A DNA stretch of 4,141 nucleotides from a virus (taxonomy: Duplodnaviria; Heunggongvirae; Uroviricota; Caudoviricetes): IMG/VR virus record IMGVR_UViG_2617270961_000003. One strand, written 5' to 3'. The number at the start of each line of letters is the position of its first letter. The first letter of the stretch is position 1. The notes under the pieces are model-generated. The model had not been told where the DNA came from, did no database searches, and was given only the letters and a program-made list of their open reading frames with translations. A program made the translations under genes and the position numbers. Shown here piece after piece: positions 1 through 4,141 of the stretch.

Positions 1-118
1 AGACGATGACGTCACTGCCCGGCTGTATGCGCGAGGTTACCGACTGCGGCCTGAGTTTTTTAAGTGACGTAAAATCGTGTTGAGGCCAACGCCCATAATG
101 CGGGCAGTTGCCCGGCAT
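1..118 (-). CDS. insB: IS1 InsB, 5' portion (partial, cut by the window edge; continues at 3746..4141 if the ends are joined)
   Basis: ATG at 118..116 followed by CCG GGC AAC (M-P-G-N), the recalled InsB N-terminus MPGNSPHYG. It is in the -1 frame relative to insA and overlaps the insA 3' end. Confidence 0.75.
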
Positions 119-312
119 CCAACGCCATTCATGGCCATATCAATGATTTTCTGGTGCGTACCGGGTTGAGAAGCGGTGTAAGTGAACTGCAGTTGCCATG
201 TTTTACGGCAGTGAGAGCAGAGATAGCGCTGATGTCCGGCGGTGCTTTTGCCGTTACGCACCACCCCGTCAGTAGCTGAACAGGAGGGACAGCTGATAGA
301 AACAGAAGCCAC
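37..312 (-). CDS. insA: IS1 InsA (transposition inhibitor / N-terminal part of the InsAB' transposase)
   Basis: 91-aa [46 protein letters not shown]... is the IS1 InsA sequence as I recall it, with a zinc-finger-like CxxC...CxxC N-terminus. Confidence 0.95.
55..63 (-). other. IS1 programmed -1 ribosomal frameshift motif (A6C) joining insA to insB'
   Basis: Window 55..63 gttttttaa is the reverse complement of TTAAAAAAC at the 3' end of insA, the known IS1 frameshift site for InsAB' production. Confidence 0.8.
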
Positions 313-344
313 TGGAGCACCTCAAAAACACCATCATACACTAA

Positions 345-367
345 ATCAGTAAGTTGGCAGCATCACC
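345..367 (-). repeat. IS1 terminal inverted repeat (IRL), 23 bp
   Basis: Window 345..367 atcagtaagttggcagcatcacc is the reverse complement of GGTGATGCTGCCAACTTACTGAT. It is an imperfect inverted match to the other terminus at 3731..3753. Confidence 0.9.
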
Positions 368-506: not shown

Positions 507-1466
507 TTAATTTACCATCAGTCTTAGAGCCAGTTCGTCCGGATAGGGATCGAAGTAATTCTGTGTAAGCAAGTAATCATTAGGATACTCACCCAGATAA
601 TGCTTCAGCAGAGTCAACGGCGCAAGAAGAGGTAATGTGCCAGAACGATAGTTAAGTATAACCTCGCTCAACTCTTTACGCTGGCGTGTACTTAAGTAGT
701 TACTAAAATACCCCTGTATATGCATCAGCACATTCGTGTGATTTTTACGTGATGCAGGTTTTCTGAGAATCGCCATCAGCTTATCACGATACACCTCAAA
801 GTATGATTCAAGGTCCGCCCACTCGTGTATTGCAGCCACAAATGGTCCCATATCTTTATAGCCTGCCTGACTATGCGCCAACAACTGAAGCTTATAACGA
901 CTATGAAAAGCTAATAACTCTCTTCTTGATAATTTCTCCTTGTAAAGGTGATTGAGCTCATGCAAAGCAAAAACTCTTTCAACAAAATTCTCACGAAGCA
1001 CTGGATCATGTAATCGCCCATCCTCTTCAACCGGTAGCCAGGAAAACTTTTCCATCAAAGTGCTCGTAAATAGTCCCACTCCATCTTTACGACCTCGATT
1101 ACCATTTTCATCATAGACACGCACGCGCTCCATGCCACAGCTGGGAGATTTAGCACAAACCACAAACCCCGATACATCCTTTAATTTGTCCATATAAGAA
1201 CGACTAAACTCTGTCATTCTCTCTGTCACATCCTCATTCTGGTCGTGGCTGAAACACATCCGTATATTTCCTTGCGTCGAGCGCACAAGACGTAGAGCAG
1301 GACGCGGAACTGGCAGCCCTATAGCCATTTCCGGACATACTGGTCTGAATGTTACCCATTCCACTAATTTGTCCATTAAAAAGTCAGTTCTTTTGTGACC
1401 ACCATCAAAACGAACAGCAGAACCGGCCAAACAACCGCTGATTCCAATCACAGGTTTTTTTATCAT
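507..1466 (-). CDS. DUF523/DUF1722 fusion protein (TudS-like thio-nucleobase desulfidase-type N-terminal domain, YbgA-like C-terminal domain)
   Basis: 319-aa ORF. The N-terminal third has DUF523/TudS hallmarks: GISGCLAG (Cys12), RPVCPEMAIGLPVPRP (Cys44) and KSPSCG (Cys104, Cys110). The C-terminal half looks like the YbgA/DUF1722-type helical domain. A strong Shine-Dalgarno (GGGGGAG) sits 5 nt upstream of the ATG at 1466. Confidence 0.8.
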   Translation of the reverse strand: MIKKPVIGISGCLAGSAVRFDGGHKRTDFLMDKLVEWVTFRPVCPEMAIGLPVPRPALRLVRSTQGNIRMCFSHDQNEDVTERMTEFSRSYMDKLKDVSGFVVCAKSPSCGMERVRVYDENGNRGRKDGVGLFTSTLMEKFSWLPVEEDGRLHDPVLRENFVERVFALHELNHLYKEKLSRRELLAFHSRYKLQLLAHSQAGYKDMGPFVAAIHEWADLESYFEVYRDKLMAILRKPASRKNHTNVLMHIQGYFSNYLSTRQRKELSEVILNYRSGTLPLLAPLTLLKHYLGEYPNDYLLTQNYFDPYPDELALRLMVN

Positions 1467-1658: not shown

Positions 1659-2183
1659 ATGAAGTTATGGCCTGTGTTGACTGGCATTGCACTCTCTTTC
1701 ACTCTTATAGCATGTAAGGCCCCGACACCACCTAAAGGTGTGCAGCCGATTACAAATTTTGACGCCAACCGCTACCTCGGAAAATGGTATGAAATAGCTC
1801 GCCTCGAGAACCGGTTCGAACGTGGTCTGGAACAGGTCAGCGCTACTTATGGAAAACGGAACGACGGAGGGATTCGTGTACTTAACCGTGGATACGATCC
1901 AACGAAAAATAAATGGAGCGAGAGCGAAGGTAAAGCATACTTTACTGGAGATACTAAAACTGCAGCATTGAAGGTTTCGTTTTTTGGCCCCTTCTATGGT
2001 GGCTATAATGTAATCAAACTGGATGATGAGTATAAGTATGCTCTTGTCAGTGGTCCGAACAGAGAATACCTATGGATTCTGGCAAGGACCCCAACTATTC
2101 CAGATAAAGTAAAAGCAGACTATGTGCGAACCGCTCAAAAGTTGGGATTCAATGTCAATGAATTATTATGGGTTAAACAATAA
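1659..2183 (+). CDS. blc: Outer-membrane lipoprotein Blc (bacterial lipocalin)
   Basis: 174-aa ORF with a lipoprotein signal peptide and lipobox (LIAC, Cys19). Long collinear similarity to E. coli Blc as recalled (NFDAxRYLGxWYEIAR, FERGLExV, SEGKAYFTG, AALKVSFFGPFYGGYNVI, YLWIL.RTPTI), but clearly divergent from it, roughly two-thirds identity by eye. Confidence 0.9.
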   Translation: MKLWPVLTGIALSFTLIACKAPTPPKGVQPITNFDANRYLGKWYEIARLENRFERGLEQVSATYGKRNDGGIRVLNRGYDPTKNKWSESEGKAYFTGDTKTAALKVSFFGPFYGGYNVIKLDDEYKYALVSGPNREYLWILARTPTIPDKVKADYVRTAQKLGFNVNELLWVKQ

Positions 2184-2211
2184 AATCCCTACCCGAAATA
2201 ATACTTATTAG

Positions 2212-2240
2212 AAAAAAACCAGCCTTTGGGGAGGCTGGCT
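2212..2240 (-). terminator. Rho-independent terminator for minus-strand transcription (candidate tR' of the Q-controlled late unit)
   Basis: On the minus strand: GC-rich stem CCAGCCT / AGGCTGG (2238..2232 and 2225..2219), 6-nt loop CCCCAA, then a T7 run (2218..2212). On the plus strand the hairpin has no following T-tract, so it is unidirectional. Confidence 0.55.
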
Positions 2241-2297
2241 AAATCAGGAAACAAGCTGTTATATGATAATAACTACGTTGCGATTCCAACATTTAAA

Positions 2298-2801: not shown

Positions 2802-2939
2802 TCATACTCCTGCTCCTGTCAGTGTTTTGGCGTAATTCTTCAGTATTCGGTAATCGGTCAAAACAGAACCGGGGAAACGATATAAGCGCAGACGCCCCCA
2901 GCGGTGGCGAAGAAGTTCTGCCATATTAAACTCAAACAT
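2802..2939 (-). CDS. ylcG: Small ORF (45 aa) between rusA and Q, position-equivalent to DLP12 ylcG
   Basis: My own translation: [45 protein letters not shown]. Its ATG (2939..2937) overlaps the rusA stop (TGATG), and GGGG lies about 8 nt upstream. It is below the ORF-track size cutoff. The identification rests on synteny and size from memory. Confidence 0.45.
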   Translation of the reverse strand: MFEFNMAELLRHRWGRLRLYRFPGSVLTDYRILKNYAKTLTGAGV

Positions 2940-3301
2940 CATTCATTCCCCATTTCGGTGATGGTCAGTTCCAGCCTCCCACCTTTGGTAACAGGCATCT
3001 TCACAACGCGGTAATCAACGACCTGAGCATCATCCAGCCAGAAACCTGCTTTAGTGAGTGCGTCAAAAGCGGCTTTTTGCAGATTATCCAGGTCACGGCG
3101 ACGGCGATCCGGCATGTGGCACTCAATGCGGATTTTCACAGGCATAGTCAGGCCGATATCCAGCATTGCGTTTTTAATGATTCGGGCGACGTTATCGCGG
3201 TATGCCTGCCCCTCTGCGCTGACGTGCGTGCGCCCGCGATTATGGCGGTAATAGCGATTATTGCTCGGAGGCCAGGGTAATGTGATGCTGTAGGTATTCA
3301 C
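2939..3301 (-). CDS. rusA: Crossover junction endodeoxyribonuclease RusA (Holliday junction resolvase), lambdoid prophage type
   Basis: 120-aa [40 protein letters not shown]...[10 protein letters not shown], essentially identical to E. coli K-12 DLP12 RusA as recalled. The start codon in this sequence reads GTG and overlaps the upstream ybcO-frame stop (GTGA). Confidence 0.95.
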
Positions 3302-3426
3302 GCCTTAATAACCCCCTCTTTCAGCCAGATAACCTGTGTTCTCGCCATACCTTCCAGCGCGCATTCTTTTGCATATGCAGCATCGACTTGCTTGGCATGC
3401 CCTTTACCGGCAATCTTCTGTATGCG
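3298..3426 (-). pseudogene. ybcO: ybcO-like remnant: only the C-terminal ~42 codons remain open upstream of rusA
   Basis: Minus-strand frame ending at TGA (3300..3298) translates ...[40 protein letters not shown], matching the recalled YbcO C-terminus. The same frame is closed by TAG codons at 3429..3427 and 3435..3433, and no ORF of full YbcO size exists. Confidence 0.5.
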
Positions 3427-3507
3427 CTAAACCTAGATAGAATCCACTCTGTGCACATTGAAGCCCGCTCTATGCTTCCTTTCAGGTATTGAAGGGATTG
3501 AGATGGG

Positions 3508-3744
3508 CTAAGCATTATTGGCCTCCTGCATCAGGAGAAAGACAATCATGGAGGCGCGGAGAGGTCTGGTATCAAATATTGGGCTTACGCCTTTTGCATC
3601 CACACACCATTCAGTTAACTGGTCTAAGATAGAAATCCTGTATTTCTCAATAATCGGCCATGAAGCGCTCGGATCATTGCAGTAGTCAGGCAAATGATTT
3701 AATGGCTCAAAAGTTGTATCAGCATTTCCGGGTAATGACTCCAA
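3508..3744 (-). CDS. Hypothetical 78-aa ORF of unknown family; 5' end lies inside the IS1 terminal repeat (possible IS1-truncated gene or hybrid ORF)
   Basis: ORF-track frame starting at TTG 3744..3742, which is inside the IS1 inverted repeat. It is in the same frame as the ybcO-like remnant but separated from it by amber stops. I recognise no family. Coding status is uncertain. Confidence 0.25.
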
Positions 3745-3753
3745 CTTATTGAT
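3731..3753 (-). repeat. IS1 terminal inverted repeat (IRR), 23 bp
   Basis: Window 3731..3753 ggtaatgactccaacttattgat is the IS1 right-end repeat and pairs imperfectly with IRL at 345..367. Confidence 0.9.
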
Positions 3754-4141
3754 AGTGTTTTATGTTCAGATAATGCCCGATGACTTTGTCATGCAGCTCC
3801 ACCGATTTTGAGAACGACAGCGACTTCCGTCCCAGCCGTGCCAGGTGCTGCCTCAGATTCAGGTTATGCCGCTCAATTCGCTGCGTATATCGCTTGCAGA
3901 TTACGTGCAGCTTTCCCTTCAGGCGGGATTCATACAGCGGCCAGCCATCCGTCATCCATATCACCACGTCAAAGGGTGACAGCAGGCTCATAAGACGCCC
4001 CAGCGTCGCCATAGTGCGTTCACCGAATACGTGCGCAACAACCGTCTTCCGGAGCCTGTCATACGCGTAAAACAGCCAGCGCTGGCGCGATTTAGCCCCG
4101 ACATAGCCCCACTGTTCGTCCATTTCCGCGCAGACGATGAC
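3746..4141 (-). CDS. insB: IS1 InsB, 3' portion (partial, 5' end lies beyond the window edge / at 1..118)
   Basis: Track [51 protein letters not shown]...[12 protein letters not shown] matches the C-terminal ~125 aa of IS1 InsB as recalled. The frame stays open to the window end. Confidence 0.9.

Follow-up and report, generated by a model that had tools for sequence, protein, structure and literature searches.

Between positions 3298 and 3744 of the window (the whole 4,141-nt stretch of DNA that was analysed), the minus strand is a patchwork of five pieces: the end of an IS1 element, a remnant of ninX, a stub of ninF, a spacer and a remnant of ybcO (Table 1). We read this stretch as the scarred nin region of a lambdoid prophage, and not as a single gene, with a probability of about 0.93. 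The only intact gene fed by it is rusA. Judging from the truncations, functional NinX, NinF or YbcO proteins would not be expected from the three remnants.

Table 1. Features of the nin region and of the IS1 parts at the two ends of the window, with positions counted from the first letter of the window.
Feature	Coordinates	Strand	Description
IS1, insB-proximal part	3731..4141	minus	terminal inverted repeat GGTAATGACTCC... from 3731
IS1, insA-proximal part	1..367	minus	ends ...GGCAGCATCACC at 367
insA	37..312	minus	from the ORF list
insB, part	3746..4123	minus	from the ORF list
Stops in the frame of TTG 3744	TAG 3510..3508, TAG 3435..3433, TAG 3429..3427, TGA 3300..3298	minus	
ninX remnant	3508..3730	minus	last base of codon 40, codons 41–113 and native TAG 3510..3508
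ninF stub	3453..3515	minus	ATG 3515..3513 and first 21 ninF codons; frame differs from that of TTG 3744
64-aa chimeric ORF	3321..3515	minus	21 NinF residues and 43 from the spacer and out-of-frame ybcO DNA
Spacer	3388..3452	minus	65 nt; contains TAG 3435..3433 and TAG 3429..3427
ybcO/DUF1364 remnant	3298..3387	minus	last 29 codons and TGA, native frame
rusA	2939..3301	minus	Holliday junction resolvase gene; intact, next downstream; ORF list and RefSeq annotation

The minus-strand frame that runs from TTG 3744 to the TGA at the rusA start contains exactly four stops, as seen from translation of 3298..3780 and a stop count in each frame. A sequence-only reading of this DNA had described the frame as open apart from three TAG codons, and both the translation and the stop count agree with it, also on where the codons lie. 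It had further assigned the first 14 nt of the resulting 78-aa ORF to IS1. Since the IS1 end is at 3731, positions 3744..3731 do belong to the element. The TTG (3744..3742) follows the TAA stop of insB (3748..3746) by 1 nt and is a fortuitous start codon inside the IS1 terminal repeat.

The 78-aa segment had been thought to match no recognised family, yet its translation matches the Pfam family PF10765 (Phage_P22_NinX / DUF2591) with 50.1 bits and E = 4e-13, well above the cut-off for this family (gathering score 22.6 bits). The match spans profile positions 46–114 of 114 only. Alignment with residues 41–113 of phage L NinX gave 69 identical residues out of 73 (95%), and the two sequences end at the same ...ANNA stop. 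On the basis of this identity and the common end, TAG 3510..3508 is the native ninX stop. A complete NinX has about 113 aa and a start of its own; here residues 1–40 have been replaced by IS1, and the piece is a gene fragment rather than a member protein of the NinX family. The equivalent stretch in the genome of PSS-08-2 is annotated in RefSeq as ‘NinX family protein, incomplete, missing N-terminus’. The position of the remnant is also that of ninX in the ninE-ninX-ninF order of its relatives: the overlap between the ninX stop and the ninF start is kept, while the ninE side has been lost to IS1. A scan of the three translated pieces against NCBIfam returned nothing meaningful. One substitution within the remnant is private to the window (position 3552, T on the minus strand where 7/7 relatives have G) and changes an Ala of NinX to Ser.

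The start codon of ninF overlaps the stop of ninX by 8 nt (3515..3508, ATGCTTAG), and the same overlap is found in phage L. From 3730 down to 3453 the window has 94.2% nucleotide identity to the ninX-ninF region of phage L, and the similarity ends at 3453. At the protein level, 16 of the first 22 residues are identical to phage L NinF. Both the overlapping start and the conserved N-terminus typical of NinF are thus present, with NinF recognisable over 21–22 residues only. Homology stops after residue 22. The Cys-rich part that makes up the rest of NinF (CANCG...VCSDCC in phage L) is missing, and the remaining 42 residues of the 64-aa ORF do not resemble NinF. Neither the ninF start with its 21 codons in another frame, nor the 65-nt spacer, nor the 64-aa chimeric ORF (3515..3321) had been mentioned in the sequence-only reading.

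The spacer that follows matched neither phage L nor the DLP12-type prophage in nucleotide comparisons. A sensitive blastn search of phages and E. coli genomes located it in two contexts only, the mosaic itself and Stx1-phage DNA. In the mosaic context, 583 complete E. coli genomes have it at no less than 99% identity, and it is also found in 27 phage records. In the Stx1 phages AU6Stx1 and SH2026Stx1 a version with about 88–91% identity lies in unannotated DNA after ninE, and this context is also found in about 249 mostly STEC genomes. Inspection of the context in phage AU6Stx1 revealed no gene there. The Stx1-phage and STEC copy is preceded by a scrap of ninF, roughly codons 12–21. When the mosaic and Stx1-phage copies were compared, none of the six frames had an excess of synonymous change. 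The predicted RNA fold of the spacer is no better than that of shuffled sequence (z = +0.89), and Rfam gave no match in the region. The spacer thus behaves as non-coding filler.

A YbcO-like C-terminus had been proposed for the end of the frame, and the last 29 codons are indeed 100% identical to that of YbcO. Compared with the DLP12-type ybcO of strain LH13-b, the remnant is identical at 90/90 nt and 29/29 aa, the latter corresponding to YbcO residues 68–96. It scores 18.2 bits against Pfam PF07102, below the gathering score of 29.9 bits, and covers only profile positions 62–92 of a domain of about 92 positions. The full-length LH13-b YbcO, by comparison, matches PDB 3G27 at E = 3e-62. Upstream of 3387, neither the DNA nor the protein comparison gave an alignment to ybcO, and the Cys-rich residues 1–67 are missing. 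Genomes with an intact ybcO give the same picture, as their match also starts at 3387 or within 6 nt of it. In matching genomes RefSeq labels the remnant ‘DUF1364 domain-containing protein, incomplete, missing N-terminus’. The TGA overlaps the GTG start of rusA (GTGA), as it does in DLP12-type prophages.

Intact versions of the region are known from other phages. Phages L, P22 and ST64T (ninE-ninX-ninF-orf101-orf136-rusA, with orf136 as the YbcO homologue) have the same gene order and orientation as the window; in phage L this reads ninX-ninF-orf101-orf136(DUF1364)-rusA. The window shares 94% DNA identity with the phage L type over ninX and the initial 21 codons of ninF, and in that type a 96-aa DUF1364 gene is found directly upstream of rusA. 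Compared with this type, the window has lost the remainder of ninF, orf101 and 67 DUF1364 codons, which are replaced by 65 nt, and its ninX is cut by IS1. In E. coli AW1.7 a KilAC antirepressor gene takes the intermediate position (ninX-ninF-KilAC antirepressor-DUF1364-rusA). The DLP12 type (ybcN-ninE-ybcO-rusA-ylcG-quuD, represented by strain LH13-b) has the 3′ end of ybcO in common with the window (100% over 90 nt), together with the GTGA overlap of ybcO and rusA, and the rusA, ylcG and Q-type antiterminator genes. Unlike the window, it has an intact 96-aa ybcO, carries ybcN in place of ninX, and lacks a ninF stub.

The truncated arrangement, with ninX, the ninF stub, the spacer and the ybcO tail in front of rusA, was found in 569 of 5426 complete E. 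coli genomes (about a tenth), counting genomes in which the mosaic covers at least 80% of the query. It is also found in 27 phage records, which are 98.8–99.8% identical over 3298..3730, and the genomes sampled from the 569 are 98.6–99.8% identical over the same positions. Phages ev099, ev207, ev243, mEp332, PhiR11_1, Chlobot and others have, like the 569 genomes, the same mosaic with the three TAGs and the 64-aa ORF. These phages and genomes carry the full 113-aa ninX, whereas in the window, as in PSS-08-2, codon 40 is the site of IS1. Base-by-base comparison with related loci showed the three TAGs and the TGA to be identical in 7/7. The suspicion that the TAGs could be sequencing errors was addressed by this comparison of sequences, and on this basis they are not errors, since the mosaic carries all three in so many complete genomes and phage records. 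RefSeq (PGAP) names the mosaic pieces ‘phage protein NinX family protein’ and an incomplete DUF1364 protein. The pieces are thus already annotated publicly as pseudogenes, and the locus is a known kind of thing, namely scarring of a lambdoid nin region together with truncation by IS1.

From these comparisons a plausible history can be proposed. The ancestor would have had the order ninX-ninF-(one or more accessory genes)-ybcO-rusA, as is still the case in phage L and E. coli AW1.7. One or two illegitimate recombinations may then have joined ninF codon 21, through 65 nt of foreign DNA, to ybcO codon 68. The product, a ninF stub with a ybcO tail, would subsequently have spread widely among lambdoid phages and prophages of E. 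coli. Later, in the lineage of the window, IS1 probably inserted into ninX between 3730 and 3731, and the first 40 codons were removed. We infer these steps from the sequences compared; the anatomy that they would have left is seen directly in the window.

The recombination would also have created the 64-aa chimeric ORF, which stops 19 nt before rusA. In RefSeq this ORF is labelled ‘protein ninF’ in phage ev099 and hypothetical protein in phage mEp332, and at least 1000 contigs carry exactly this 64-aa sequence, again named ‘protein ninF’. As only the first 21 residues are NinF, the name is misleading and represents a propagated misannotation. The ORF might nevertheless be a genuine, expressed and useful protein that is translated via the start/stop overlap of ninX and ninF. 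It has retained the ninF start context (ATGCTTAG), is open in 7/7 of the loci compared and in 15 protein variants, and is present both on those 1000 or more contigs and in inducible or free phages. Against this, 43 of the 64 residues are not NinF and the Cys-rich part is gone, and PGAP leaves the ORF uncalled in the complete genomes examined. In the ybcO-derived part, 3/3 substitutions are non-synonymous in the chimeric frame, including a Trp to Gly change, a sample from 7 loci that is too small to judge selection on the ORF. Its spread is explained equally well by hitch-hiking beside rusA and Q. A useful protein is therefore unlikely, and we regard the ORF as a by-product of recombination. 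The more specific idea of a young new protein, coupled to ninX in intact phages and kept in ∼10% of E. coli for its function, seems very unlikely. In the window itself, IS1 has severed ninX from the upstream operon, and coupled translation of the 64-aa ORF would need transcription out of IS1.

The IS1 parts at the two ends of the window add up to one 768-bp element (367 + 411 − 10), and RefSeq genomes carry IS1 transposase annotations on the matching DNA, which identifies the element as IS1. Homology to IS1-free phages ends at 3730. The window begins and ends with the same 10 nt (AGACGATGAC). Given this identity and the single 768-bp IS1, the window closes into a circle of 4131 bp that consists of IS1 and 3363 bp of prophage DNA. 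The closed window stems either from an assembly that collapsed two direct IS1 copies flanking the segment into one, or from a genuine circle formed by IS1-IS1 recombination. Among complete genomes, the junction at 3730/3731 is identical only in PSS-08-2, where ninX is marked incomplete, and the left junction (at 367) only in strain ET650. The two junctions together are found in no complete E. coli genome.

Several other strains have acquired IS1 independently in the same region. In HeN100 the element lies 58 bp further into ninX, and in GN02270 it lies 1 nt away with the other IS1 end at the junction, which gives the opposite orientation. S1-CAM-04-C has IS1 inside ninE with a target duplication, and the matching annotation points to the same for EC6868. 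The nin region beside rusA may therefore be a local hot spot for IS1. Beyond IS1, the genomes of PSS-08-2 and HeN100 continue directly with the xis/int end of the prophage, next to ybhC; the early region appears to have been deleted in association with IS1.

The location of IS1 ∼430 bp upstream of rusA raises the idea that the element switches on a quiescent rusA, by read-out or by transcription from a hybrid promoter. In K-12 the rusA gene is silent and can be activated by IS2 or IS10 insertions upstream (PMC1636454). The K-12 alleles resemble the window in having an insertion sequence upstream of rusA in a defective lambdoid prophage (PMC1636454), but they involve IS2 or IS10, whereas the window has IS1 with no promoter-like site at the junction. 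The insAB genes are on the same strand as rusA, and IS1 has arrived independently in this nin region in several strains. These repeated arrivals may, however, reflect target preference only. When 2900..3900 was scanned for promoters, no sigma-70-like site turned up at the IS1/ninX junction or close to it; the sole hit is inside rusA, and the number of hits is below the shuffle mean. The scan found no terminator in 2900..3900. Classically, insertion of IS1 has polar effects. In PSS-08-2 and HeN100, moreover, IS1 appears to be part of an IS1-mediated deletion that merely inactivated the prophage. Activation of rusA by IS1 is hence possible but unsupported, and we judge it highly unlikely in the window. 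The recurrence of IS1 near rusA could still be of use to those who study how insertion sequences activate cryptic rusA.

For the frame as a whole, the sequence-only reading had offered two explanations: a once-longer gene that had decayed by nonsense mutations, or a different truncated gene that had ended up in frame by chance. The second has proved correct, with a NinX remnant followed by a ybcO remnant, while the first fails at both ends. The upstream part is NinX and its TAG is the native stop, and at the ybcO end the first 67 codons were lost through deletion or recombination and not through nonsense mutations. Two independent remnants would be expected to share a frame with a probability of 1/3. 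From the ninX stop to the ybcO remnant there are 40 codons, which hold 2 stops where 2.14 are expected (P(≤2) = 0.64 from base shuffles). The shared frame and the stop count are thus a coincidence, with no residual coding signal. Of the three TAGs, the first ends ninX as in intact phages, and the remaining two are stops that occur by chance in non-coding spacer DNA. That all three internal stops are TAG is mildly unusual, as TAG makes up 5/23 of the stop trinucleotides on the minus strand. The oddity is weakened because one of them is conserved as the stop of ninX and the remaining two, separated by 3 nt, belong to a single short motif, TAGGTTTAG, which is also found in the Stx1-phage version.

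The idea of a single gene that once began before the IS1 site, extended to the start of rusA and was killed by three amber mutations is favoured only by the shared frame and by how few stops that frame has. The two ends, however, belong to different Pfam families (NinX, PF10765, and YbcO, PF07102), and intact phages carry ninX and ybcO as two genes with at least one further gene in between. TAG 3510..3508 ends NinX natively in every intact relative, and the spacer shows no homology to ninX or ybcO and has stops at a chance number. The Pfam families, the gene order of phage L, the DNA comparison and the NinX alignment together led us to reject the single decayed gene, which we consider exceedingly improbable. 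Read-through of the TAGs, by a suppressor tRNA or by programmed decoding, to give a NinX-YbcO fusion protein has nothing in its favour beyond the three internal stops all being amber, and its chances are practically nil: the frame of TTG 3744 has no coding signal between the first and the last TAG, conserved coding capacity in the same frame past the stop was not found, the ninX remnant has neither a start of its own nor the N-terminus, and intact NinX stops at this TAG in all relatives. What appears to be a long ORF interrupted by amber codons is instead a coincidence of frame among three gene remnants in a very common prophage mosaic.

Immediately past the Q antiterminator gene the window carries a YbgA-family gene (DUF523 + DUF1722; 507..1466, minus strand) and a lipocalin-family gene (1659..2183, plus strand). 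S1-CAM-04-C has YbgA-family and lipocalin genes between Q and the holin gene, where other relatives have a porin gene. The two are non-phage-like cargo and look like moron genes. On the minus strand at 2210..2253, Rfam reports ‘Betaproteobacteria toxic sRNA’ with 28.6 bits, below the gathering score of 50. The match lies on a GC-rich hairpin that directly follows the lipocalin gene and is most likely nothing more than a terminator.
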